From positions 1-52,212 of IMG/VR virus record IMGVR_UViG_3300049830_000248: a DNA stretch of 52,212 bases; one strand, 5' to 3'. Each line of letters opens with the position of its first letter. The stretch's first letter is position 1. This stretch comes from a virus. Taxonomy: Duplodnaviria > Caudoviricetes. The position numbers and the translations under genes were made by a program. The notes under the pieces were generated by a model. It was given only the letters and a program-made list of their open reading frames with translations, had not been told where the DNA came from and did no database searches. This document shows, in pieces, positions 6 to 52,212 of this stretch.

Positions 6-176
6 ATGAATAAAAATCCCGCAGCCGTGGCGCTCGGCAAAATGAAAAGTGCGGCCAAGTCGAAAGCTGCCCGCGAGAACGGCAAGCTCGGCGGTCGCCC
101 GCGCAAACCAAAGCGTGTGGCTCGGAGTGCTAACGCCGCGCTCTGCGAAGTGGCGGACAAGACGCGACCGAATTAA
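6..176 (+). CDS. Small basic AT-hook-like protein (56 aa), last ORF of a cassette cut by the window start
   Basis: ATG at 6 gives MNKNPAAVALGKMKSAAKSKAARENGKLGGRPRKPK...; GRPRK motif; reads through the AAC of the attC at 128 and stops at TAA 174-176 in its loop. Not in the ORF track. Confidence 0.65.
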   Translation: MNKNPAAVALGKMKSAAKSKAARENGKLGGRPRKPKRVARSANAALCEVADKTRPN

Positions 177-220
177 CCGATGCCGTGGCCCGCCACTTTC
201 GCAGCAGCAAGTGGTTAGAG
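128..220 (-). other. attC site A1
   Basis: TGCTAAC(128-134)-5 nt-GCTCTGCGAAGTGGCGG ... CCGCCACTTTCGCAGCAGC-5 nt-GTTAGAG(214-220); two unpaired bases (T, C) in the right arm on the + strand. Confidence 0.85.
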
Positions 221-241
221 GCGAATAATCGTAATACAAAT

Positions 242-574
242 ATGAAAAATGCAATCGAATGGTTCAAAGAAAAAGGCTTTGACGCTAACTGGAATGGAAA
301 AATAAAGCTGAAGGACATCATCGCTCTGCAAAATGACGCTGCGAAATCCGCGCTGATGACGGCGCAAATGGTCGCGTCCGAAGTCATCCAAAAAGAGGCT
401 ACGAAGTATGCCGTCATCGGCGACCCGATACCCGGCCCACCGGCTGAAATGTCACTGTCAGGACTCCAATACAAAGTCACGAGTGCAATCGTGGCGATGG
501 CGGACAAACTGGAATACATACCTGAAGCCTCTAACGTAGAACTGAGCGACCGGCGCGAGAACAATCAACGATGA
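242..574 (+). CDS. Hypothetical cassette protein (110 aa; possible GTG start at 185)
   Basis: ATG after an A/T-rich leader; cassette ends GTTAGAGGC(214-222)/GCCTCTAAC(527-535) are perfect reverse complements. Confidence 0.7.
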   Translation: MKNAIEWFKEKGFDANWNGKIKLKDIIALQNDAAKSALMTAQMVASEVIQKEATKYAVIGDPIPGPPAEMSLSGLQYKVTSAIVAMADKLEYIPEASNVELSDRRENNQR

Positions 575-639
575 CCGCTACTCTACCAGCATCCGAATTG
601 CAGAGGCCCGCGCCGGTTCGCTCCAGTGATTTGTTAGCG
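529..639 (-). other. attC site A2
   Basis: CTCTAAC ... ACTGAGCGACCGGCGCG / CGCGCCGGTTCGCTCCAGT ... GTTAGCG; bulged T and C in the right arm. Confidence 0.85.
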
Positions 640-1380
640 CGTCCGGCCCGAATCGTTGCGCTGTCTGGCGGGAAGGACTCAACGGCGATGGCACTCGGAC
701 TCGCGGAGCGTGAACCAGACGAATACGAATACTGCATCACGCCGACCGGACGTGAACTGCCGGTGATGGTGGAACACTGGAAGCGCCTCGAATGTCTGCT
801 CGGCAAACCGCTCATCAAAGTGCCCGCGCCGACGCTGGTGGAACTCATCATCAAATACAAAACGCTCCCGAATCACCGGATGCGCTACTGCACGCGCCAA
901 GTGAAAATCGAGCCGTTCCAAATCTACGCGGCAGGCAAAGCTCCGGCGGTGTGCTATGTAGGAATCCGCGCCGACGAAGCGGACTCACGCGAAGGAACTG
1001 ACCACACGGGCATCGTCGGCGTGACGCAAGACTGCCCGCTCGTGCGATGGGGCTGGGACATAAACGACGTGAGGAACTACCTCCGCAAGCGCGGTGTGGA
1101 AGTGCCGGAGCGAACAGACTGTGACATGTGCTACCACCAGCAACTCGGCGAATGGTGGCGGCTGTGGCGCGACCACAAAGACCGCTGGCAGGAAATCGAG
1201 GCACTCGAAGCGTGGACAGGGCACACGCTGCGGAGCGAGCAACGCGACACCTGGCCGGCGAGCCTGAAAGAACTCGCCAAGAAATTTGAGGCTGGATACG
1301 TGCCGAAAGGAGCAGCGCAAACAAACCTCCGCCTCGACGTGTCCGAGCGGTCAACAATGTGCGCGTGGTGTGCTCGATGA
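571..1380 (+). CDS. Phosphoadenosine phosphosulfate (PAPS) reductase-family protein (cassette)
   Basis: PP-loop IVALSGGKDSTAM, RYCTRQVKIEP, VGIRADE, PLVRWGW, CDMC cysteine cluster. Confidence 0.85.
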   Translation: MTATLPASELQRPAPVRSSDLLARPARIVALSGGKDSTAMALGLAEREPDEYEYCITPTGRELPVMVEHWKRLECLLGKPLIKVPAPTLVELIIKYKTLPNHRMRYCTRQVKIEPFQIYAAGKAPAVCYVGIRADEADSREGTDHTGIVGVTQDCPLVRWGWDINDVRNYLRKRGVEVPERTDCDMCYHQQLGEWWRLWRDHKDRWQEIEALEAWTGHTLRSEQRDTWPASLKELAKKFEAGYVPKGAAQTNLRLDVSERSTMCAWCAR

Positions 1381-1402
1381 ACACGAGACGCAACATCCGG
1401 CG

Positions 1403-1525
1403 CGCTAACGCAAAGGCCAGCAACGGCGGGGGACAATGAACGATGAACGCAGAACCGATATTGGAATTGGAACAAGGTGACGAACGCACGGCGCACCCGC
1501 CGTTGGCTGCGCCGCTTGGTTCTGC
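1403..1525 (-). other. attC site A3
   Basis: CGCTAAC ... GGCCAGCAACGGCGGG / CCCGCCGTTGGCTGCGCC ... GTTCTGC; two bulges in the right arm. Confidence 0.85.
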
Positions 1526-1970
1526 ATCCCCGCGTGACAAGCACATCATGTCAGTAATGGGAAGCTCGAAAGACATGACGTGGCCGACACCGACGGAATG
1601 GTTCGACTACCTCGACCTCGAATTTGGCTTCACGCTCGATCCGTGCTGCGAACACGCGACGGCGAAATGCGCGAAGCACTACACGCCAGCCGAAGATGGA
1701 CTGGCGCAACCGTGGAAAGATGAACGTGTCTTTATGAATCCGCCGTATGGCCGCGAAATCGGCGCGTGGATGAAGAAGGCATACGAGGAAGCCCGCGACA
1801 ACGGCGCACTGGTGGTGTGCTTCGTGCCTGCTCGCGTGGATACAAACTGGTGGCATAGCTACGCTGCGAAAGCCACAGAAGTCCGCTATCCAAAAGGGCG
1901 CGTGAAAAACCCGGACGGCGTGGCATGGCCGTTCCCAATCGCGGTGATAATCTACCGCCCGCGACTGTGA
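1443..1970 (+). CDS. Phage DNA N6-adenine methyltransferase, Dam-like (cassette)
   Basis: WPTPTEWF...FTLDPCC, catalytic VFMNPPYG, VPARVDTNWW; cassette ends GTTCTGCATC/GATGCAGAAC are perfect complements. Confidence 0.9.
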   Translation: MNAEPILELEQGDERTAHPPLAAPLGSASPRDKHIMSVMGSSKDMTWPTPTEWFDYLDLEFGFTLDPCCEHATAKCAKHYTPAEDGLAQPWKDERVFMNPPYGREIGAWMKKAYEEARDNGALVVCFVPARVDTNWWHSYAAKATEVRYPKGRVKNPDGVAWPFPIAVIIYRPRL

Positions 1971-1971
1971 T

Positions 1972-2069
1972 GCAGAACGCTCGTGCTGACCTACCCCGCA
2001 TTGACGATGTGGCCCGCGAAAGCGGATGTGAGGGGAACAATAGGGGTTAGGTCCGGCACGTTGTTAGCA
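1972..2069 (-). other. attC site A4
   Basis: GCAGAAC ... TGCTGACCTACCCC / GGGGTTAGGTCCGGCA ... GTTAGCA; two extra bases in the right arm. Confidence 0.8.
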
Positions 2070-2083
2070 GGCGAATTTGAGAT

Positions 2084-2236
2084 ATGAAACAAAAACCGAA
2101 AAGCAAAAAGGCCGACTCTTTGAAGTGGGCAATCGGCCAGCTTGAAAAGATGGCGGCGGAAGAAACAGACCCAAAACTGAAAGCTCTCTGGCTGCGAAGT
2201 GCGGCTGCTGGCTACGAACGAAAGGCAAGGCAATGA
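2084..2236 (+). CDS. Small hypothetical protein (50 aa), first ORF of a two-gene cassette
   Basis: MKQKPKSKKADSLKWAIGQLEKMAAEE...; its TGA overlaps the next ATG (ATGA 2233-2236). Confidence 0.6.
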   Translation: MKQKPKSKKADSLKWAIGQLEKMAAEETDPKLKALWLRSAAAGYERKARQ

Positions 2237-2604
2237 CCGAAGAACTGAAATCAAACACTCCGAAAACGGACGCATACGACAAAGACAACTGGCGTGGCAA
2301 CTCCGCTGGCTGGCGCGAGCGATCAATCACCATCGAGGACGCTCTGGACTTCGCACGCAAGCAAGAATACTCGGCGGCGTGCGCCGAAAAGCTCCTGCTC
2401 GAAATCGGCCATGCGATAGCCGAACGGCTCGAAAAAATCCGCATAGACTCCGACAAAGAACCGCACCGCCGAAACGCAGAGTGCGACATCAAAACCGAAG
2501 ATATGCTGGATATGATAACGCGCAGCATCCACACCTATAAACTCACTCAATCCGACGACGTGGCCGAGCCTGCTAACGTGAAGTCCTGCGGTGGCGGGGA
2601 ATAA
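2233..2604 (+). CDS. Hypothetical cassette protein (123 aa)
   Basis: TPKTDA...DFARKQE phage-like motif; cassette ends GTTAGCAGGC/GCCTGCTAAC. Confidence 0.7.
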   Translation: MTEELKSNTPKTDAYDKDNWRGNSAGWRERSITIEDALDFARKQEYSAACAEKLLLEIGHAIAERLEKIRIDSDKEPHRRNAECDIKTEDMLDMITRSIHTYKLTQSDDVAEPANVKSCGGGE

Positions 2605-2691
2605 ATCTATGAGCGCAAAATCACCAGTTGAAATTGAGGCGAGCGGCGAGCGTAAAAAAATCACGCCATCCGCAGCGACGCTTGGTTCGGC
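2571..2691 (-). other. attC site A5
   Basis: TGCTAAC ... GTCCTGCGGTGGCG / CGCCATCCGCAGCGAC ... GTTCGGC; bulged T and C. Confidence 0.85.
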
Positions 2692-2700
2692 AGCTCCCAC
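2574..2700 (+). repeat. 127-bp exact repeat, internal copy (other copy 52086-52212)
   Basis: Direct comparison from TAACGTGAAGTCC to GCAGCTCCCAC. Confidence 0.95.
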
Positions 2701-2941
2701 GTTCTGCGCTGGCTGTGACTGGTGGAAACCGCGTAGAACGGCAGACGGCATGACCGGACTCGTCGGGTGGTGTGATGCCTTCAAGAAAACAACCAATGCG
2801 ACTCACGGTTCGCGCTGCACTGCGTGGACTCGCTGGCAAGAGCCGCCGAACGATGAAGCCAGCGAACCCGGAACTATGACTCACGACAACCCAAAACCCG
2901 AAGCGGCGAACCCAAGGCGTAATCCGGGTTCGCTGCGCTGA
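2609..2941 (+). CDS. Cys-rich hypothetical cassette protein (110 aa)
   Basis: Starts in the attC A5 loop; CAGC...WC...C pattern; ends inside attC A6. Confidence 0.65.
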   Translation: MSAKSPVEIEASGERKKITPSAATLGSAAPTFCAGCDWWKPRRTADGMTGLVGWCDAFKKTTNATHGSRCTAWTRWQEPPNDEASEPGTMTHDNPKPEAANPRRNPGSLR

Positions 2942-2951
2942 CTGGTTAAGC
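2845..2951 (-). other. attC site A6
   Basis: GCCGAAC ... AGCCAGCGAACCCGGA / TCCGGGTTCGCTGCGCT ... GTTAAGC; bulged C in the right arm. Confidence 0.85.
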
Positions 2952-2972
2952 ATCCCGAACAACAACACAAAT

Positions 2973-3155
2973 ATGAAACTGAAAAAAATAATGATACTGG
3001 AACTGACCGAACTCGAAACCGATGCAATCAAAACGCTCATCGGCAGAACGTCCGAGAAGGCGCGACTCGACCTCGGCCTGACTCTCGCTCAATCCAACAC
3101 TGTGTCTGACATCTACGACCACCTTCCGAATCTGGATGATGGCAAGGATGCTTAA
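2973..3155 (+). CDS. Hypothetical protein (60 aa), attI-proximal cassette
   Basis: Cassette ends GTTAAGCATCC(2945-2955)/GGATGCTTAAC(3146-3156), 11 bp perfect. Confidence 0.7.
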   Translation: MKLKKIMILELTELETDAIKTLIGRTSEKARLDLGLTLAQSNTVSDIYDHLPNLDDGKDA

Positions 3156-3182
3156 CAATCATTAACAAACTTCTGTTCGTAT
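3150..3182 (-). other. Putative attI site
   Basis: The last cassette end is followed by a non-hairpin A/T-rich 26 bp with TTAACAA repeated at 3152 and 3162, directly before the intI start. Confidence 0.6.
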
Positions 3183-4151
3183 ATGAGAATTGAAACCGCC
3201 TTGGAAACATTAAGGGATGTGATTCGCAGGAAACATTTCTCTTTGGCTACGGAACGGAGTTATCTCATGTGGGTGTCACGTTATGCGAGATTTGTTTCTG
3301 ACCTTGCCCGCAGGAATTGCCCGCAGGGATTGCCCGCCCAAAAGTTAGAGGCGTTTCTTACACAACTCGCCCGTCAGGACGTTTCAGCCTCAACTCAAAA
3401 TCAGGCGTTCAATGCGCTAATCTTTTTTTACCGCGAAGTCGTCAAGGTCGAGGTTGGAAACGTAAATGCGTTGCGCGCCAAGAAGCCTGTGCAATTGAGA
3501 TTCGCGCCCGAATTTTCAGAGGTAAAAAAACTGCTCGAATCAGTTCAGGACATTGGAGGCTATCCTACCCGCCTGATTGTGAAATTAATTTACGGTTGCG
3601 GCCTGCGCGTTTCCGAGCCGCTGAATCTTCGCGTGAAGGACGTTTTGCTGGAAGATTCCAAGCTGGTGATTTGCGGAGCGAAGGGCGGAAAAGATCGGTT
3701 TATTTCAATCCCCTGCTCGCTGGCTGGAGAACTGAAAACGCAACTGGCTTTTGCAAAATCGGTTCAGGCGCAAGACCGCACCAATTTGGTTCCAGTTGCT
3801 TTGCCTGGATTGCTGGCGAAGAAATACCCGCATTGGCAGTTCTCTCCGAAATGGGCGTTTTTGTTTCCTGCCCGGACGACTTGCCAACATCCGCGCGAAG
3901 GATTTAATGTCCGATGGCGTTGCCACGAGGCGAATGTTCAGCGGGCGGTTCGGGCAGCGGCGCGGCCTTTGGGTCTGGACATCACGCCGCACCACCTACG
4001 CCACGCCTACGCGACCCACTGTTTGAACAGTGGGCACAATCCGCGAGCGATTCAACAGGCGATGGGTCACAGCCAGCTAGAGACAACGATGGGCTACCTC
4101 CATGCCGAAGCCATGAGCGTTAAATCACCTTTGGAATTTCAAACTCACTAA
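3183..4151 (+). CDS. intI: Integron integrase (IntI-type tyrosine recombinase)
   Basis: IRRKHFSLATERSYLMWV, VSASTQNQAFNALIFFY, YGCGLRVSE, KGGKDR, IntI-specific insertion ALPGLLAKKYP...WAFLFP...HEANVQRAV, HHLRHAYATH, MGHSQLETTMGY; catalytic R-K-H-R-H-Y all present. Confidence 0.92.
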   Translation: MRIETALETLRDVIRRKHFSLATERSYLMWVSRYARFVSDLARRNCPQGLPAQKLEAFLTQLARQDVSASTQNQAFNALIFFYREVVKVEVGNVNALRAKKPVQLRFAPEFSEVKKLLESVQDIGGYPTRLIVKLIYGCGLRVSEPLNLRVKDVLLEDSKLVICGAKGGKDRFISIPCSLAGELKTQLAFAKSVQAQDRTNLVPVALPGLLAKKYPHWQFSPKWAFLFPARTTCQHPREGFNVRWRCHEANVQRAVRAAARPLGLDITPHHLRHAYATHCLNSGHNPRAIQQAMGHSQLETTMGYLHAEAMSVKSPLEFQTH

Positions 4152-4155
4152 AACC

Positions 4156-5241
4156 ATGTTCAAAAACGCAAAAATCTTCTCCATCGGCGCGAATCCAGAA
4201 GAATACCACAGCCAGCCAGCCGAGCGCGGTCAATCCAACTATGTGATGTCGTCATCCGCGCTGCGGATGTTCGCGCTCTGTCCGTCGAAGTGGCGGAATG
4301 GATGGGAGCTTCCGCGCTCCGCGTCCCTCGAATACGGGAGCTTGTTTGATACGCTCATGCTGACGCCGGAGCAGTTTGACACGCGTTACGCGTTGATTCC
4401 AGCCACTTACGATTCGGCGGCGATGAAGTGTCCGAAGTGCGGCTCGGTGTCCGAGGCTGCATCCTGCCGCGCCTGCAAGACCGAGCGCGAGCCGACGACG
4501 ATTCAAAAGCCGTGGAACGGTAATTCGGACACCTGCCGGGCGTGGCTGGACGCGCAGAAGGCCACTGGACGCGAGGTAGTGTCCGCTGACGCCCTGGGGG
4601 ACGCGCAGAGCGCGGCAAAGAGGCTTCTGGCCGACGACCAGCTTAAACGGTTCATCGAAGCCTGTGACAAGCAGGTTTGGCTGACTGCTGACTGGCACGA
4701 CGAAAACACCGGCATCATCGTGCCGGTCAAATGCCTTCTGGACTTGGCGGGAAAGGCAGACAGCGCGTTTGCGAAATCCCTTGGTGATCTGAAAACCACG
4801 AAGAACGCCGCTCCTTTGGCGTGGGCGAAGTGGGCGCATTACGCTGGTTACGAGATTCAGGCCGCTTGGAACACCGACATATTTGTAGCCGCATCGCAGC
4901 GCGAGATTACGAACTTTTGCTTTGTTCTGTCCGAAAGCGAATTCCCTTTTGAAACTGGCCGGCGCTTCATGTCACAAGACCTTCTTGAGCCGGGGATGGA
5001 CACGGGCGACATCGCATCGGGGCGGCGGCAATACCTTGGGATGCTCAAAGGGTATTGCAAATGTGTCAAAAACAACTTCTGGCCGGGATTTGACGACACT
5101 GACGAGGCGAGCGCGGACGGTTGGACGCTGGTTTTACCCGAACCTTACGCAGAACAACGCCGGATGTTCGCTCCGAAATTCAATTATGAGACGGGCGACA
5201 CGGAGGAGGCGGAAGAATCCGACCCAGATTTAATCCCTTAA
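4156..5241 (+). CDS. RecE/exonuclease VIII-like PD-(D/E)XK exonuclease with zinc-ribbon insert
   Basis: EEYH...SSSALR, GSLFDTLML, KCLLD, DLKTT, YEIQAA; CPKC...CRAC insert. Confidence 0.8.
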   Translation: MFKNAKIFSIGANPEEYHSQPAERGQSNYVMSSSALRMFALCPSKWRNGWELPRSASLEYGSLFDTLMLTPEQFDTRYALIPATYDSAAMKCPKCGSVSEAASCRACKTEREPTTIQKPWNGNSDTCRAWLDAQKATGREVVSADALGDAQSAAKRLLADDQLKRFIEACDKQVWLTADWHDENTGIIVPVKCLLDLAGKADSAFAKSLGDLKTTKNAAPLAWAKWAHYAGYEIQAAWNTDIFVAASQREITNFCFVLSESEFPFETGRRFMSQDLLEPGMDTGDIASGRRQYLGMLKGYCKCVKNNFWPGFDDTDEASADGWTLVLPEPYAEQRRMFAPKFNYETGDTEEAEESDPDLIP

Positions 5242-5400
5242 TTCCTGACCTGCCAGCCTGACCGTCTCGCGCATGGCCTCAAACCACTCTTTAGGCGTTC
5301 GGACGCGGGAAACGGGCGTTGGCGAGCGGCGCGGAGCCTTCTGACGCGGTTCGGGCTGGTCGTCATCCAGCCACCAGAACCGTTTATTTCCTGATTTCAT
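5230..5400 (-). CDS. Small hypothetical protein (56 aa)
   Basis: ATG at 5400, MKSGNKRFWWLDD...; last gene of a leftward operon. Confidence 0.5.
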   Translation of the reverse strand: MKSGNKRFWWLDDDQPEPRQKAPRRSPTPVSRVRTPKEWFEAMRETVRLAGQELRD

Positions 5401-5411
5401 AATTTTATGGG

Positions 5412-5651
5412 TTAAGGTTTGGGTAATAGGTAGATGGTCTTGCCACACTCGCAGGCCAACGGCTTTCCGAACGCCTGTTGCCAAAGAAGCGTCTGTTGGT
5501 ATGGCATCACCGAAACCTTCTGGCCGCTCCGGTCGTGGCCGGTGTATTTCGCGCACGAACCAGCGCACTCCACGCAGAGCAGCGCGCCGTTGTCGCCGGA
5601 GTAGATGACGCCTGCTTTCAACACTGGCGTCGTATGGTCGAGCGGTCTCAC
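5412..5651 (-). CDS. Zn-binding hypothetical protein (79 aa)
   Basis: CVEC...CECG; the GTG start overlaps the stop of a 31-aa ORF (5743-5648). Confidence 0.55.
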   Translation of the reverse strand: MRPLDHTTPVLKAGVIYSGDNGALLCVECAGSCAKYTGHDRSGQKVSVMPYQQTLLWQQAFGKPLACECGKTIYLLPKP

Positions 5652-5748
5652 GATTGCACCGCCTTTCCTTCGGTAAACATGACGGAATAATTGACCCATC
5701 CAAGCGCGCTTACGCCTTTGTATTGTCGAGTTTCAGTTTTCATTTTTG

Positions 5749-6048
5749 TTAGTCGTTGGAGTGCCGGTCGGCACGTTCAGTTTCTTCGATGCTGCTCGGC
5801 GACGGAGCGGAGATAGCTTCCGCGTTCTCCCTGCCCACAGTTTCCGATGGGCTAGTTCGCTGTTCCGCCGCCGAGAAGATTTTCGGAGTGTGATTTCGGA
5901 CATAGATGCCGAGCGCGTCAGGGTAGTAGCACCCGTCGCGGTCACACTTGTTGATTAGCTCTTTCATCAGGTCGGGCAGCCAGCAGGCCGGAGCTTCTAC
6001 GATCTGCCGCTGTAGTTCTTCGATTGTTATTTTCATATTTATTTTCAT
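5749..6048 (-). CDS. Hypothetical protein in an ectopic gene cassette
   Basis: Bounded by GTTGGAGTG(5755) and CACTCCAAC(6063-6071) plus an attC. Confidence 0.65.
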   Translation of the reverse strand: MKINMKITIEELQRQIVEAPACWLPDLMKELINKCDRDGCYYPDALGIYVRNHTPKIFSAAEQRTSPSETVGRENAEAISAPSPSSIEETERADRHSND

Positions 6049-6064
6049 ATTTATTTTCCGGTCA

Positions 6065-6158
6065 CTCCAACCAATCGCCGAAGCGAAAGTGGCGGGCGAT
6101 GGCCATTGGTTAATCCGAACGTCTCCCGTCCGCCACTTCGCTTGGCTCGGCGTTGATC
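6065..6158 (+). other. Orphan attC site homologous to A1, opposite orientation
   Basis: CTCCAAC ... GCCGAAGCGAAAGTGGCGG / CCGCCACTTCGCTTGGC ... GTTGATC; closely resembles the reverse complement of 128-220. Confidence 0.8.
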
Positions 6159-6430
6159 TTGAGCGTGTCGAGGTTGCGCCAAGCCGTCTTGCCGTTGCGC
6201 TCGTTCTTCACCAGCGCGCGGGCAACCCCATACGCAAGCTTGAAATCCGTAATGGTTACGAGGGTTTCCTCAACCGCGCCAGCATACAGCAGGGCGGTTG
6301 AGCCGATGAGTTTCTGCGATTCGATTGTGGTCATAAGTCGCCCACCGCGAATCTGGTCGTTGATGTGGTTCGCAATCAACTCGGCGTTTGGCCCGATGAT
6401 CTCTATATTGCTTCCAAGTATCGTTTTCAT
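6110..6430 (-). CDS. Hypothetical protein (106 aa)
   Basis: First gene after a leftward promoter; C-terminus encoded by the attC arm. Confidence 0.65.
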   Translation of the reverse strand: MKTILGSNIEIIGPNAELIANHINDQIRGGRLMTTIESQKLIGSTALLYAGAVEETLVTITDFKLAYGVARALVKNERNGKTAWRNLDTLKINAEPSEVADGRRSD

Positions 6431-6478
6431 ATCAATTCCATTGGTTAATTGTTGATTCCAGTTTTGCCTAGCACCGAT

Positions 6479-6507
6479 AAACTACCATTGTGCCGAATAG
6501 GTGTCAA
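6479..6507 (-). promoter_or_regulatory. Sigma70-like leftward promoter
   Basis: TTGACA-17 bp-TAGTTT on the - strand. Confidence 0.6.
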
Positions 6508-6572
6508 CGTCTATTTCATCTTTTCTTTATCCCCTTGACTTTTCCAGCCGCTACGCCGATTTTCCCGCTGAT

Positions 6573-6965
6573 ATGCCGCTATTTACCGTTGAAAACGCCG
6601 CCGAACTTGGACGCAAAGGAGCTATTCGCCGCAAGGAGCTAATCGAGCAGCGGAAGGCCGAAGCCAAGCAAGCCGAATTTGAACGCGCCACACCGGAGCC
6701 AGAAGCGGCGATTGAGCGGACTAAACGGCAACTGTCGAAGGTGGATGACATGATAGATGCCGCACTGGAGGAGGATGACGCCGACCTGTTTTTACGCCTC
6801 TCTGCCGCCAAAGAGCGCCTCTGGAAGCTGGTTTCCCCGACCGCTGGCGTCCTGAAACAGCCTCGTGGTCGTCAAGATCGGCTCCGGCCTGCAATCGCGC
6901 CGATGTCCGAGCAGCAGCCAGCGACACCACAAGCGGAAACTTCGATTTCTGCCAACGCCTCTTGA
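6573..6965 (+). CDS. Hypothetical helical protein, possible terminase small subunit
   Basis: MPLFTVENAAELGRKG then a coiled coil, followed by a long non-coding G-rich region; the TerS call is inference only. Confidence 0.45.
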   Translation: MPLFTVENAAELGRKGAIRRKELIEQRKAEAKQAEFERATPEPEAAIERTKRQLSKVDDMIDAALEEDDADLFLRLSAAKERLWKLVSPTAGVLKQPRGRQDRLRPAIAPMSEQQPATPQAETSISANAS

Positions 6966-7519
6966 TTTGCCAATGTTTTTGTGCGTGTTTTGAATTGCCA
7001 AAAGCGCCTCACGAAACCAGCATGAACATTGATTGAATAATTATAGACACACAATAGTCCTTGTGTTCACTTGTGTTTTCTTGTGGTGTCCAAGACCAGG
7101 AACTTTTGATGGAGGCAAGGAATCTCTTTGGCTGGCCGAGGGGGTGGGACGGGTGACGGGGGGAGGGGGAATCACAGCGACGATGGCGCGGCGTGACTCC
7201 CCCTTTTCACACGAGGAATAAAAATGGAAGGGATTGTAGAAAGGAGGATGAATCTTTTGTGGACATAGTTCGCCCCTAAATGGAAGGGAAGCCGCTGTTG
7301 TTCGGAGAGCTTCCGCAGCGGGTGTCACCGGCCCTTTGCTCACAAGACGCTGGTGCGCCTTTGGGGAGGGACGAATGTTAATGCGGAGAGTTCGGGTGCG
7401 GGGCGATTTCGGGATGTGAAAAGCCGGTGCAAAGACTGGCAGATCGTTCCTATTGTTGAGCGGGCAACAACACCACGATGAGGCGGGTATCCGAGCCTGG
7501 CGGATGCAACCGAGGACGC

Positions 7520-48360: not shown

Positions 48361-48438
48361 ATCCTAGCCTTTGGCTTTTCTGGGCGCAAGAAAAAAAACA
48401 ACTTTTTTGTTGACGCACCGCTTTGGCTCTGGCATAGT
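48361..48438. promoter_or_regulatory. Divergent sigma70-like promoters
   Basis: Rightward TTGACG-17-CATAGT (48410-48438); leftward TTGCGC-17-TAGGAT (48389-48361). Confidence 0.6.
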
Positions 48439-49085: not shown

Positions 49086-49958
49086 ATGCGTATGAACAAA
49101 CCAGCCGAACAACCATCCCTCGAAATCGCCCACCTTGAAACCGGCGCGCTGGAAAAACAATCCGCGCAAACCGAAACTGAACGGATGTTCGCCATGATTG
49201 AGCGCATGGCAACCGACCCGCAGGTTGACCCGGCAAAACTCCGAGAGATTCTGTCCGTCAAACAGGCATGGGAAGCCGACGAGTCCCGAAAGGCTTTTGC
49301 CTCGGCGATGGCAAAGTTTCAATCGCTCTGCCCAATCATTGAAAAGCTGGATACGGCGAACGGGCGCGGTTACGCGCGTCTTGATCGGATTCACCGCGAG
49401 ACTCGTCCGCTTTTGCGCGATTGCGGGCTTTGGTTTTCTTGGACGGTTTGCGAGGAACGCGATGGCGGCTTGATTCACCTTGAAGGCATCTTGGGTCATT
49501 CCAGCGGGCATCAAGTCCCATGCCGCCAGTTGATTTCACTCCCCGACAAGATTTCCGGCACGAACGCCGCGCAACGTGCCGGAAGCGGACAGACATACGC
49601 GAAGCGTTACGGGGAGCTTGCAGCATTGAATGTCGTCACAGGCGATGACAACGACGGCAATTCGCGCAAGGAGCGTCCGGTAGGGCCGGCAGCGCGTCCG
49701 GCGGCTAACCCGTCCGCGCCCTCTGCGCCACAAAAAGAAACTTTTGAAGAATTGAAGAAAAAGCTGTCGAAAGAGCTTTGGGACTTACTCAAGCCGACCG
49801 TCAGCCAAGTCGCCGGCTGGAATCCAAAAACGTGGGACGGCCACAATCAGTGGCTATTCCGCGAGGACATCTTGGACGGCGGAATTCCAGAAGTCATGCC
49901 CGATCTGAAACCGGAGCGGATTGCGGCGGTTATCGGGCTGGTGAAGGAGCGGATTTAA
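49086..49958 (+). CDS. ERF-family single-strand annealing protein
   Basis: AMAKFQ, YARLD, HSSG, QRAGSGQTYAKRY...LNV..GDDNDGN. Confidence 0.85.
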   Translation: MRMNKPAEQPSLEIAHLETGALEKQSAQTETERMFAMIERMATDPQVDPAKLREILSVKQAWEADESRKAFASAMAKFQSLCPIIEKLDTANGRGYARLDRIHRETRPLLRDCGLWFSWTVCEERDGGLIHLEGILGHSSGHQVPCRQLISLPDKISGTNAAQRAGSGQTYAKRYGELAALNVVTGDDNDGNSRKERPVGPAARPAANPSAPSAPQKETFEELKKKLSKELWDLLKPTVSQVAGWNPKTWDGHNQWLFREDILDGGIPEVMPDLKPERIAAVIGLVKERI

Positions 49959-50036
49959 CGACCCAAGCTGACGACGTGAATTGAAACCTGCGGCTCAATC
50001 GGCCCACTCCGATTGTATTGTTAGCGAGCAACGACT

Positions 50037-50372
50037 ATGAAAAAGACCATAAAAAAAGAAGTTCGGTTCTGCGACAAATGCGGAAAGGAATACTCATATC
50101 CAGACGCCTGCATGAAGTGCGGGACGGAAATGTGCTACGAGTGCAAACAGAAACACGGGAAGTCCTACAACCACGCCATCTACCTTCAAGGCAGTGGAGA
50201 CGGCTTCTACTGCAATCCGTGCGATGCGAAACTGACCGCCGCCGGAACTGACAAACGCCACAACGCCTACCGCGCCATCAAATCCCTGAAAGATGAACTG
50301 GAAGCGTGGCACACCGACTTCAAAAAACGCCAAGAGGCAGCCGAGAACGCGGTGAAGGCTCTTGCTCGCTAA
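50037..50372 (+). CDS. Zn-binding hypothetical cassette protein (111 aa)
   Basis: Four CxxC pairs; ends GTTAGCGAGCAA(50020)/TTGCTCGCTAAC(50373). Confidence 0.75.
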   Translation: MKKTIKKEVRFCDKCGKEYSYPDACMKCGTEMCYECKQKHGKSYNHAIYLQGSGDGFYCNPCDAKLTAAGTDKRHNAYRAIKSLKDELEAWHTDFKKRQEAAENAVKALAR

Positions 50373-50470
50373 CGCAGACTTGAGTGGCGCGAAATAAAAT
50401 CTATGACAACCCCTGACGTTTCCGAAAAACTGAATGCGCTAATCGCGTCCACTCCAAGGACGGGTTCGGC
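50367..50470 (-). other. attC site B1
   Basis: CGCTAAC ... CTTGAGTGGCGCGA / TCGCGTCCACTCCAAG ... GTTCGGC; bulged T and C. Confidence 0.85.
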
Positions 50471-50645
50471 ATCACCAGAGCGCCTCCAACATCTGGGCAC
50501 AGTCCTGCGAATCAGGCTCAATCGCATCGCTGAAACCAGCGACACAAATAAAATCTGGCTCGAAGCCCGCGAATCTCTTGAAGTCTTGCGCCAACTCGAA
50601 GCTGTGATGCCGAACGCTCCGCATGAGCGAACCCCGGACAAGTGA
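50403..50645 (+). CDS. Hypothetical cassette protein (80 aa)
   Basis: Starts in the B1 loop; ends GTTCGGCATCAC/GTGATGCCGAAC, 12 bp perfect. Confidence 0.65.
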   Translation: MTTPDVSEKLNALIASTPRTGSASPERLQHLGTVLRIRLNRIAETSDTNKIWLEARESLEVLRQLEAVMPNAPHERTPDK

Positions 50646-50650
50646 CGTAT
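50609..50650 (-). other. Truncated attC B2 (left arm only)
   Basis: GCCGAAC plus an arm-like GCATGAGCGAACCCCGG with no complementary arm or GTTGGGC downstream. Confidence 0.55.
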
Positions 50651-50673
50651 GAAAACCAAAAACTCTCTCGCAA

Positions 50674-50898
50674 ATGCCACCTACACCGATGAACGAACCT
50701 ATCTGCATAAAATGCAAAACACCAATGTCGCCAGTCCCGAAGCAAACGGGCATCTTGGCAAACGCGACATTCACAGTCACGGGCTTCCGGTGCGAAAACT
50801 GCGGTCACTGGAATAATCTCAAACGCAGAAAACAGAAGCAGCCCAACACCAAGCTCACAGATGCCGGGACTGTGAGCGTGAAATTGGATGAGACGTAA
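50674..50898 (+). CDS. Zinc-ribbon cassette protein
   Basis: CIKC...FRCENCG; stop lies in the B3 loop. Confidence 0.65.
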   Translation: MPPTPMNEPICIKCKTPMSPVPKQTGILANATFTVTGFRCENCGHWNNLKRRKQKQPNTKLTDAGTVSVKLDET

Positions 50899-50929
50899 TC
50901 CCGGCATTCTGTGCAGCTTTTCGTTAGCG
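50841..50929 (-). other. attC site B3
   Basis: GCCCAAC ... GCTCACAGATGCCGGGA / TCCCGGCATTCTGTGCAGC ... GTTAGCG. Confidence 0.85.
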
Positions 50930-50997: not shown

Positions 50998-51285
50998 ATG
51001 ACAAAATTCTGTTACAAGAAACTATCGGAAAACGAACTGCACGAAATGGCGTTACTGCTATCTCGTGCGATTCACAACGAACAGGTCGGCATCGAAACTG
51101 AAAGCCCGGACGGTAAAAATCCCGGCTTCATCACGAAACAGCTATTCGGTGTGTGTGACGGCATGGAAGATACTACCATCCTCATCCAGCCCGAAGGCTT
51201 GAAGTGGCTGTGGGTGCGATATATGGGTGCGAAAGGCGGAAAAGCCAAGGCCGCGAAAACAAAGAAGCGTGACCGCGCACGCTAA
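50998..51285 (+). CDS. Hypothetical cassette protein with basic KGG-like tail (95 aa)
   Basis: MGAKGGKAKAAKTKKR; its stop is the TAA of the TAAC box. Confidence 0.7.
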   Translation: MTKFCYKKLSENELHEMALLLSRAIHNEQVGIETESPDGKNPGFITKQLFGVCDGMEDTTILIQPEGLKWLWVRYMGAKGGKAKAAKTKKRDRAR

Positions 51286-51380
51286 CGACAAGCTCACGCC
51301 ATGACTACCGCGCCAACAGCGTCCGCCTCGCCGAAAACCGTCAACGCGGTAGTCATTGAGCGTGCAGCGACTGGTTCGCC
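51280..51380 (-). other. attC site B4
   Basis: CGCTAAC ... GCTCACGCCATGACTACCGCG / CGCGGTAGTCATTGAGCGTGCAGC ... GTTCGCC. Confidence 0.85.
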
Positions 51381-51711
51381 ATTTCGGGTGCGACTCTCTC
51401 GCAAGCGCGGATGGAGGATGCCGGAAAATACTGTGGTCGTGTCGAAGCCGAGCGTGTGGGGAAATCCATTCTGGAAAGGTTTCGGCTGCCGGATGAGCGC
51501 GGCCTGGAGCTATCGCGTCCACCTGCAAGTGGCGCTCGTGCAAATACGCCTCGGCCTGCCATGCGATGAACCACACTTCGAGCGCATCGCAAAACGGCTG
51601 CCCGAACTGCGCGGGAAGAATCTCGCCTGCTGGTGTCCACTCGATATGCCGGACTGCTACTGCCACGCGGGCGTGCTGCTAGAAATGGCGAACGAAAAGC
51701 TGACCGCATGA
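51301..51711 (+). CDS. DUF4326-family protein (cassette)
   Basis: SRKRGWRMPENTVVVSKPSVWGNPF ... LRGKNLACWC...CHAGVLLEMAN. Confidence 0.85.
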   Translation: MTTAPTASASPKTVNAVVIERAATGSPFRVRLSRKRGWRMPENTVVVSKPSVWGNPFWKGFGCRMSAAWSYRVHLQVALVQIRLGLPCDEPHFERIAKRLPELRGKNLACWCPLDMPDCYCHAGVLLEMANEKLTA

Positions 51712-51786
51712 CTACCGCGCCAACAACGCCTCGCCTCGCCGAAAACCGTGAACGCGGTAGTCATTGCGTGCAGTGCTGGGTTATGC
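51687..51786 (-). other. attC site B5
   Basis: GGCGAAC ... CGCATGACTACCGCG / CGCGGTAGTCATTGCG ... GTTATGC; near copy of B4. Confidence 0.8.
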
Positions 51787-51806: not shown

Positions 51807-52088
51807 ATGAAAACCGGAGAAAAAGTAGTCTGCGTAAAAGGCTGGTCAATGCCGTAAGCCAACGATGCAAGTCACAAGCCAATCGTCGGAAATGTGTATG
51901 TGGTAGCCGGTGTCCATGAGTGCTACGAGACGATGGGAGGTCTGCATCTGCTCGGAATAGAAGTGCCGCACCACTGCTGCCGATGCGGTGGCGCTGCGGC
52001 GTGGAGATCCTACCACTTCCGAAAGCTGGATGAAATGAAACTCGAAGCAAAACAAAACCAACAACAGCCACAGACGCAAGTGGCATAA
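51807..52088 (+). pseudogene. Cassette gene with in-frame TAA at 51855-51857
   Basis: MKTGEKVVCVKGWSMP*ANDASHKPIVGNVYVV... continues in frame to 52088; ends GTTATGCCAC/GTGGCATAAC. Confidence 0.65.
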
Positions 52089-52203
52089 CGTGAAGTCCTG
52101 CGGTGGCGGGGAATAAATCTATGAGCGCAAAATCACCAGTTGAAATTGAGGCGAGCGGCGAGCGTAAAAAAATCACGCCATCCGCAGCGACGCTTGGTTC
52201 GGC
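52083..52203 (-). other. attC site B6 (second copy of A5 with a different neighbour)
   Basis: Identical to A5 from TAAC onward; the left flank is GTGGCA instead of GCCTGC. Confidence 0.85.
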
Positions 52204-52212
52204 AGCTCCCAC
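52086..52212 (+). repeat. 127-bp exact repeat, terminal copy
   Basis: Identical to 2574-2700. Confidence 0.95.

Follow-up and report, generated by a model that had tools for sequence, protein, structure and literature searches.

How can the genes of an integron be read when they lie on the strand opposite to the one on which integron genes are expected, and what becomes of their proteins when the cassettes change places? Integron biology assumes promoterless genes that lie on the attC top strand and are read from the promoter Pc, and attC hairpins in the messenger RNA are regarded as obstacles to the translation of downstream cassettes. The locus that raises the question lies in the viral record IMGVR_UViG_3300049830_000248 (Duplodnaviria; Caudoviricetes), whose 52,212 nucleotides (nt) were analysed at full length and are called the window below. 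An initial annotation of this DNA had proposed that the attC arms of its cassette array are protein-coding, and that they give the cassette proteins exchangeable C-terminal tails. Our analysis makes it highly probable that the window holds a complete phage-native integron, made up of an integrase gene (intI), its attI site and at least 13 cassettes, with genes that occupy the attC bottom strand and point toward intI, and with attC acting as an adaptor of standard reading frame.

The + strand of the window carries twelve hairpins and one half-site, each hairpin opening with a box that ends in AAC and closing with a box that begins with GTT (Table 1). A brute-force folding scan for AAC...GTT segments over the whole window was too permissive and was replaced by a covariance model trained on 11 window hairpins, which recovers 12 + strand sites at E <= 9e-6, plus one site on the minus strand (6065-6158). 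Folding and an RNAalifold consensus pair AAC with GTT and continue with about 5 unpaired bases on each side, a 3-bp stem (the L box), a bulged base on the 3' arm, 5-7 bp, a second bulge (T) on this arm and a variable loop; these are the parts of an attC, namely R box, spacer, L box, extrahelical bases opposite AAC and loop, the first extrahelical base being mostly C. Run on 55 viral loci with a gene for a relative of the integrase, the model returns 161 sites (E <= 0.01), and the best 150 of them comprise 135 on the integrase strand upstream of intI, 9 on that strand downstream of it and 6 on the other strand. Pairing holds in 98.2% of the cells among 141 distinct related sites, against 73.6% after shuffling and 25-35% when the partner is slid, and the same 141-row alignment, which was fitted to the model, contains 283 compensatory cells.

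The strand that recombines can be read from the asymmetry of these hairpins. According to the text of Nivina 2016 (PMC5027507), the extrahelical bases of an attC bottom strand stand opposite the AAC triplet, whereas those of a top strand share its arm; the spacer has a length of 5-6 nt, and the final extrahelical base, some six pairs away from the first, is a conserved T. The window's + strand fits these bottom-strand rules, as that text gives them, except that its first bulge is C and not G. The + strand thus has the geometry of an attC bottom strand, and the predicted crossover falls between AA and C in the 5' box of each hairpin. That placement at the left-hand AAC, made already in the initial annotation, is borne out by the arm that carries the bulges, by the onset of attI conservation at AAC (see below) and by a second copy of cassette E: the two copies sit behind different upstream genes, and the identity of the 126-nt copy starts at TAAC.

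The cassettes between these sites behave as discrete mobile units, as comparison shows through their end repeats, the duplicated cassette and an altered order in the metagenome locus L138. The right box of a hairpin and the left box of the next form a perfect inverted repeat of 7-12 nt in 11 of 12 pairs, the sole failure being at the contig break; because both strand models predict such terminal repeats, they are useless for telling the models apart. In L138 a homologue of ORF 6-176 (open reading frame; o6) is followed directly by a homologue of ORF 2233-2604, an order different from that of the window, and DNA identity with the window is high up to AACG/AACGT at both junctions and absent after it. 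Both ends of the homologous cassette there carry a different, yet again complementary, 10-nt box pair. The window cassettes have 7 short DNA matches and a handful of protein matches in the 55 IntI-related viral loci; since so few cassettes are common to both, the frame statistics given below were drawn from all cassettes of those loci.

The intI protein matches TIGR02249 (NCBIfam) over its full length with 256.2 bits, which is 9 bits below the curated cut-off of 265, and its residues 8-309 align with the solved Vibrio IntI4 (VchIntIA, 2A3V) at E 8e-44, the IntI-specific insert included; it is a tyrosine recombinase with that insert, that is, an integron integrase. Across ten loci (nine distinct, with integrases 69-76% identical), the sequences ahead of intI show no relation until they reach an invariant AAC, after which they are conserved as far as the start codon, the AAC sitting 27-45 nt ahead of the intI ATG; this is the expected look of an attI joined to varying first cassettes. 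The right box of attC F forms an 11-nt inverted repeat with the attI box, and the putative attI adjoins intI with its crossover apparently at the conserved triplet. The closest integrases in bacterial genomes belong to metagenome-assembled genomes (MAGs) of Verrucomicrobiota (55-59% identity), a pointer to little-studied hosts. Counted from AAC as phase 0, the attI frame is closed in all loci inspected by eye (an alignment of L004, L005, L006 and L010), and in L005 the phase-0 TAA lies one base ahead of the intI ATG, a hint at a possible coupling of intI, too, to the first cassette.

Table 1. Coordinates of the array, which runs through both ends of the record, and of the solo cassette
Feature	Position	Strand	Remarks
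Erf-like single-stranded DNA-annealing gene	49086..49958	+	PHROG 155, E 3e-28; last non-cassette gene; stop is the TAA of box G
attC G	49953..50026	+	distal end of the array; weak hairpin, 29.9 bits; 12-nt inverted repeat with next left box
attC H	50367..50470	+	73 bits, folds; loop ATG 50403 opens ORF 50403-50645
Half-site I	50609..50615	+	left box alone; 12-nt inverted repeat with right box of H; its AAC is read as Asn by ORF 50403-50645
attC M	50841..50929	+	ORF 50692-50898 reads AAC 50845 as Asn
attC J	51280..51380	+	stem/loop ATG 51301 in frame with DUF4326 gene 51301-51711
attC K	51687..51786	+	DUF4326 ORF reads AAC 51691 as Asn; stop in ATGA
attC L	52083..52212	+	repeat of cassette E, truncated at the contig end; matches 2574-2699 from TAAC onward
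attC A	128..220	+	ORF 6-176 reads AAC 132 as Asn
attC B	529..639	+	TGA of ORF 242-574 overlaps ATG 571 of PAPS-reductase-like gene 571-1380
attC C	1403..1525	+	upstream ORF stops 27 nt before; loop ATG 1443 in frame with Dam-like gene 1443-1970
attC D	1972..2069	+	upstream ORF stops 6 nt ahead of AAC
attC E	2571..2691	+	ORF 2233-2604 reads AAC 2575 as Asn; loop ATG 2609 opens ORF 2609-2941
attC F	2845..2951	+	ORF 2609-2941 reads AAC 2849 as Asn and spans nearly the whole hairpin
attI	3150..3182	+	left box GCTTAAC and about 27 nt to intI start; ORF 2973-3155 ends at its TAA
intI (integron integrase)	3183..4151	+	same strand as cassette genes, downstream of them
Solo cassette outside the array	5749..6158	-	attC 6158-6065 and ORF 6048-5749; 33.4 bits, E 1e-6

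The genes themselves are turned over with respect to this platform. Terminal repeats of at least 7 nt bound 73 of the 104 intervals between consecutive detected sites; the 71 unique ones come from 23 related viral loci and the window, and form the set of related cassettes used throughout. Their 71 longest + ORFs match 11 Pfam families, and their 71 longest minus ORFs match none. For a bacterial control, the same model and script were applied to 80 loci encoding integrase relatives: 68 of 71 model matches fall on the integrase strand, as in the viral loci, and 32 of 35 intervals between sites have their ORF on the minus strand, the 3 exceptions being all in L059, a 15.7-kb contig of phage-type layout. 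With the attC-intI relation the same and the gene strand opposite, the platform (intI, attI and the orientation of attC) is therefore canonical and the cargo reversed; cassette genes on the attC top strand with a promoter at the attI/intI end are not what the window holds, its genes being on the bottom strand. One control, positions 136-7268 of a 714-kb MAG contig (L064), holds a chromosomal array of canonical type with 16 sites, most of which measure 99 nt; its integrase is 56% identical to that of the window, and the phage-trained model gives its attCs scores of up to 53 bits. The L064 genes occupy the opposite strand, and 7 of 14 have as their stop the TAA in the TAAC box of their own attC. 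It may be that phage and host-type arrays have site types in common and differ in gene orientation.

In this orientation a gene runs into the crossover of the cassette that follows it, and the frame in which it does so is far from arbitrary. Of the ORFs that precede the 14 boxes of the window, 7 take AAC as Asn, 5 have the TAA of TAAC as their stop and 2 (571-1380 and 1443-1970) end ahead of the box. The initial annotation had listed seven array ORFs that read AAC as Asn and end inside the next attC, all of which are present in the sequence, and four TAA stops, all of which we confirm, at boxes G (49957), H (50371), J (51284) and L (52087); it had missed a fifth, at the attI box (3154). The tails that follow the Asn number 13 residues at A (stop 174), 12 at B (AAC 533; TGA 572 in ATGA), 8 at E, 29 at F, 9 at I (AAC 50613), 16 at M and 5 at K (TGA in ATGA).

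The frame bias that had been anticipated for related arrays is found in them as well. Among the 71 related cassettes the longest + ORF crosses the box in phase 0, with AAC as Asn, in 48, stops at TAA in 9, stops earlier in 11 and runs in phase 2 in 3, the median phase-0 tail being 11 residues. The split of the 60 ORFs that reach the box (48 phase 0, 9 TAA, 3 phase 2) is not random, whether it is set against a uniform expectation (chi-square p = 1e-13), against a null made from 519 other AAC triplets in the same ORFs (191/223/105; p = 3e-11) or reduced to phase 0 versus phase 2 (48 of 51; p = 1e-6). A count that uses no gene calls, taking the longest open frame upstream of at least 60 codons, gives 84/29/12 across 125 of 142 unique sites. 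At the right-hand GTT box, which lies inside the cassette, the frame of the downstream gene shows no bias (21/31/19).

If the stop is supplied by the neighbour, homologous proteins should agree up to the Asn and part company after it, and this is what most comparisons show. ORF 2233-2604 and its 4 homologues in the protein collection keep Asn 115 in five of five and then have five unrelated tails of 3-14 residues. Two methyltransferases from L048 and L017, 63% identical, align from residue 1 to the Asn, after which KPN is followed by E in one and by 12 residues in the other; of four C5 methylases, one stops at the TAA of TAAC and the other three end in Asn plus 1, 5 or 12 residues. In L138 the tail of the o6 homologue is 3 residues long, against 13 in the window protein, and one of two homologues of ORF 242-574 ends in ...SN plus 2 residues. 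Similar attCs, in turn, give similar tails, the motif EVAD being common to the tails of unrelated proteins at site A and at the minus-strand site. The predicted break of conservation at the Asn was accordingly seen for ORF 2233-2604 (o2233), for two methylase families and for o6 in L138, and the wider proposal, that each cassette supplies the stop to the gene upstream and that reordering changes C-termini, is largely supported by sequence comparison.

The attC also closes the incoming frame, and often opens the next one at the same place. Phase 0 is closed within the attC in 138 of 142 unique sites (97%), at a median of 33 nt past AAC, in or near the loop; phase 2 is closed in 91 of 142. An ATGA provides the phase-0 stop, as its TGA, in 46 of 138, with 39 of those ATGs opening at least 50 codons (17 of 91, and 8, in the phase-2 control), and an ATG that opens at least 50 codons lies within -4 to +12 nt of the phase-0 stop in 72 of 138 (control, 13 of 91). 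Consecutive genes overlap by 4 bases in 12 of 40 pairs (11 ATGA, 1 TTGA), and the overlap that had been pointed out at 571-574 is real, the TGA of ORF 242-574 overlapping ATG 571. A frame that crosses the junction thus appears, by its sequence, to be closed by the neighbouring cassette with a start near the stop, which is an arrangement of the ORF-11 type.

The five starts that the initial annotation had placed within attCs (571, 1443, 2609, 50403 and 51301) are all ATGs in attC loops and in frame with the downstream ORF; three of them, 571, 2609 and 50403, stand without a usable later start, whereas 1443 and 51301 have alternatives nearby. The only in-frame starts before residue 40 of the ORF from 571 lie within the attC, and its Pfam match begins at residue 28; the next in-frame start would be residue 48 of 110 in the ORF from 2609 and residue 62 of 80 in that from 50403. 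In the ORFs from 1443 and 51301 a further in-frame start follows the attC at a distance of 8 and 3 codons, and the Pfam matches run from residues 43 and 34, respectively. Over the whole set, the first start lies in the attC in 41 of 71 ORFs (32 ATG, 7 TTG, 2 GTG), and 13 of these 41 would otherwise lose more than 20% of their body.

These observations can be joined into a model of expression, for which ORF-11/ORF-18 at attI1 and the short ORFs of attC sites, both covered in a review (PMC8876359), serve as analogues. In the account of that review, the frame of ORF-11/ORF-18 crosses the recombination point, receives an in-phase stop from the inserted cassette and is held to drive the next gene by termination-reinitiation. 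In the window, transcription would enter from the early region upstream of Erf, and most genes, having no stop of their own, would take AAC as Asn and run on into the 5' arm of the hairpin with which the next cassette opens. A ribosome on cassette n would cross the junction between AA and C, unwind the 5' arm, terminate in the loop and restart at the adjacent ATG, and the restarted gene would read out through the 3' arm of the hairpin. The attC would in this way offer a C-terminal tail, a stop and a coupled restart to whichever gene lands upstream; because stop and restart belong to the downstream cassette and the upstream genes share one frame, any order of cassettes would stay coupled, at the cost of a short tail that depends on the neighbour. 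We infer that the ORFs are probably translated to the attC stops, and that termination-reinitiation would melt the hairpin and drive the next gene.

Several points weigh against this interpretation. The related sites were collected with a model trained on this window, the gene calls follow a longest-ORF heuristic, and the 71 cassettes were chosen by terminal repeats of at least 7 nt out of 104 intervals. The first bulged base is C instead of the usual G. Of the 71 ORFs, 11 stop before the box, 9 use the TAA of TAAC and 3 are in another frame, and the early and TAA stops make the Asn convention a majority habit and not a rule. The other homologue of ORF 242-574 (P0007) diverges a few residues earlier, with no Asn at the break. 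As to the starts, 23 of the 41 ORFs that begin in an attC have another in-frame start within the first 10% of their body, and homologues of the Dam and DUF4326 proteins (L030, L011, L025) begin after, or without, the attC-encoded part, so many of the N-terminal leaders may not be made; they are certain for some genes and optional or absent for others.

The same facts lend themselves to a neutral account, according to which the tails and the stops and starts in the loop are merely tolerated, having arisen from genome compaction or from the register in which cassettes were born, and were not selected for coupling. The tails are indeed short, and they vary without being conserved; phage operons in general often contain ATGA overlaps, 20 of the 71 cassettes end without using the neighbour, and many starts in attCs have alternatives. 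We nevertheless regard this account as unlikely, since the stops are concentrated in the very frame that upstream genes use (138/142 versus 91/142), the starts of long ORFs cluster at the phase-0 stop (72/138 versus 13/91), and the right box, which is no interface between cassettes, is without frame bias; together, these three observations point to selection at the cassette interface.

It may also be asked whether the array is a fossil, in which recombination has ceased and the pattern is inherited from an ancestral array, an impression that half-site I with its missing hairpin and the in-frame TAA at 51856 in one cassette ORF might give. This is very improbable in view of an intact intI that aligns over its length with a solved IntI, of 11 out of 12 cassette-end repeats that are perfect over 7-12 nt and covary between homologous cassettes, of phages with 72-76% identical IntI that have almost no cassettes in common, and of one cassette standing at two places in the window and a cassette order that differs in L138. 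With intI intact by sequence, recombination probably continues at the present day.

The canonical geometry, in which the + strand would be the attC top strand, the crossover would fall between G and TT at the right-hand box and each tail would travel with its own gene, is accommodated by the RYYYAAC...GTTRRRY motif, which looks alike on both strands, by terminal inverted repeats, which fit either model, and by ORFs ending in the TAA of TAAC, which are ordinary in canonical arrays (7 of 14 cassettes in L064), but it is rejected as scarcely credible, being contradicted by bulges on the arm opposite AAC, by attI conservation that begins at AAC beside intI, by a duplicated cassette that starts at TAAC behind different genes, by homologous proteins and DNA that diverge directly after AAC and by bacterial control arrays that, with the same attC-intI relation, carry their genes on the other strand.

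Read as a phage-native integron with its genes turned over, the locus can be placed among known systems. With canonical integrons (class 1, Vibrio-type) it shares an IntI with the insert, an attI at the 5' end of intI, attCs with R box, spacer, L box and two bulges, an attC bottom strand on the coding strand of intI and cassettes bounded by complementary boxes. It differs from them in having a phage as carrier, C and not G as the first bulge, and genes on the bottom strand that point toward intI and so can make no use of a Pc-type promoter at attI; genes that read through the crossover make up two thirds in the phage family, whereas in the canonical control L064 2 of 14 read into an attC, which is their own.

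The nearest precedents are the attI1 ORF-11/ORF-18 coupling and synthetic coding attCs. As the review describes it, ORF-11/ORF-18 is one tiny leader at attI on the top strand; here, it is the cassette proteins, encoded on the bottom strand, that are concerned at almost all attCs, and their stop lies in the loop. The text of Nivina 2020 (PMC7439510) presents synthetic attC sites within coding sequences, designed in the laboratory as linkers or inside lacZ, in which hairpin and coding frame occupy the same DNA as they do here; the sites of the window are natural, and in them one gene ends and its successor begins. The survey of Qi 2023 (PMC9892861) reports 3 complete integrons and 17 attC clusters from 10,705 NCBI phage genomes, the complete integrons being host chromosomal or class 1 pieces in temperate phages; these, too, place integrase, attI and attC on a phage genome, and the text of that paper, supplements aside, states nothing of bottom-strand genes or frame use. 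In the 'reverse' integrons of Treponema, as described in the texts of PMC4909258 and Cury 2016 (PMC4889954), intI is flipped with respect to attC, with intI and genes codirectional, as in the window; in the window, by contrast, the intI-attC relation is canonical, the genes are flipped and the array lies upstream of intI. Integrons with an inverted integrase are thus a different case, since the window's intI, like that of the bacterial controls, lies on the side of the attC bottom strand. The literature searched, which did not extend to the supplementary tables of Qi 2023 and Cury 2016, yielded no account of cassettes with their genes on the bottom strand, of a crossover with biased frame use or of an integron family native to phages.

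What this would mean is that a phage lineage, represented by at least 23 related viral loci, relies on the recombination machinery of other integrons although its genes are turned over and the crossover lies inside codons, the hairpin apparently serving as a coupling device. The lineage would be a natural counterpart of the engineered coding attC sites, offer a concrete and testable solution to the polarity problem of cassette arrays and make recombination a route to altered protein termini. For the fullest form of the proposal the balance is even: a natural, frame-standardised family of phage integrons in which the crossover lies inside an Asn codon, the attCs have evolved as universal adaptors, and any order of cassettes forms a coupled operon with new tails. 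Phage and host would then hold two cassette pools, mutually silent when swapped because host chromosomal integrons, with attCs that are similar, have their genes on the other strand.

The genomic setting agrees with a phage element. The record is classed as linear with an estimated completeness of 96%, and its viral nature rests on the collection's own class and this estimate; a PHROG scan of ten large ORFs returned a DnaB-like helicase, a weak tail match and Erf only. The Erf-like annealing gene stands upstream of the array on the + strand, and a PDDEXK nuclease (4156-5241) lies downstream of intI, an order which therefore places the integron in the recombination/replication module of the phage. 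Between Erf and intI the array leaves the record at its right end and resumes at its left end, so that both record ends are intra-array. The final 126 bases (52087-52212) exactly repeat 2574-2699, and the boxes across the two record ends do not match, from which it follows that the assembly probably broke at the repeated cassette and that the array is longer than seen; a repeat of 126 bases would equal k-1 for k = 127. Promoter and terminator scans of the window gave counts not above those of shuffled sequences and are given no weight, a promoter-like consensus match upstream of the operon (48410-48438) being no better than chance.

The majority of the cassettes of L003-L055 and the window have no Pfam match. 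The family-matched cargo consists of 3 C5 methylases, 2 Dam, 2 other methyltransferases and HNH, GNAT, PAPS-reductase-like, DUF4326 and NrdR-type zinc ribbon proteins, which suggests that the arrays shuffle phage accessory and anti-restriction genes.

Single sites of the array also deserve mention. No hairpin or GTT partner was found by eye downstream of half-site I (50609-50700), and the next gene (50692-50898) therefore seems to be fused as a cassette that has lost its attC. The last ORF before the second copy of cassette E, 51808-52088 on the + strand, has an in-frame TAA (51856-51858) after 16 codons and is then open to the TAAC box; the TAA could be a nonsense mutation, a sequencing error or the mark of a shorter gene with a later start. 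The attC of site J has a 96% identical counterpart in L048, with unrelated flanks. Between 7965-8034 of L019 and 50371-50440 of the window, 70 nt are 96% identical; the match begins exactly at AAC and takes in, from attC H, the left arm, the ATG of the loop and some 12 codons, whereas L019 has not conserved the right arm.

The solo cassette lies within a block of minus-strand genes and encodes 99 residues; its attC is closely similar to site A, and its terminal box is complementary to its right box. The ORF upstream of it (6430-6110) and the ORF of the cassette itself both read AAC as Asn, the former with a 13-residue tail.

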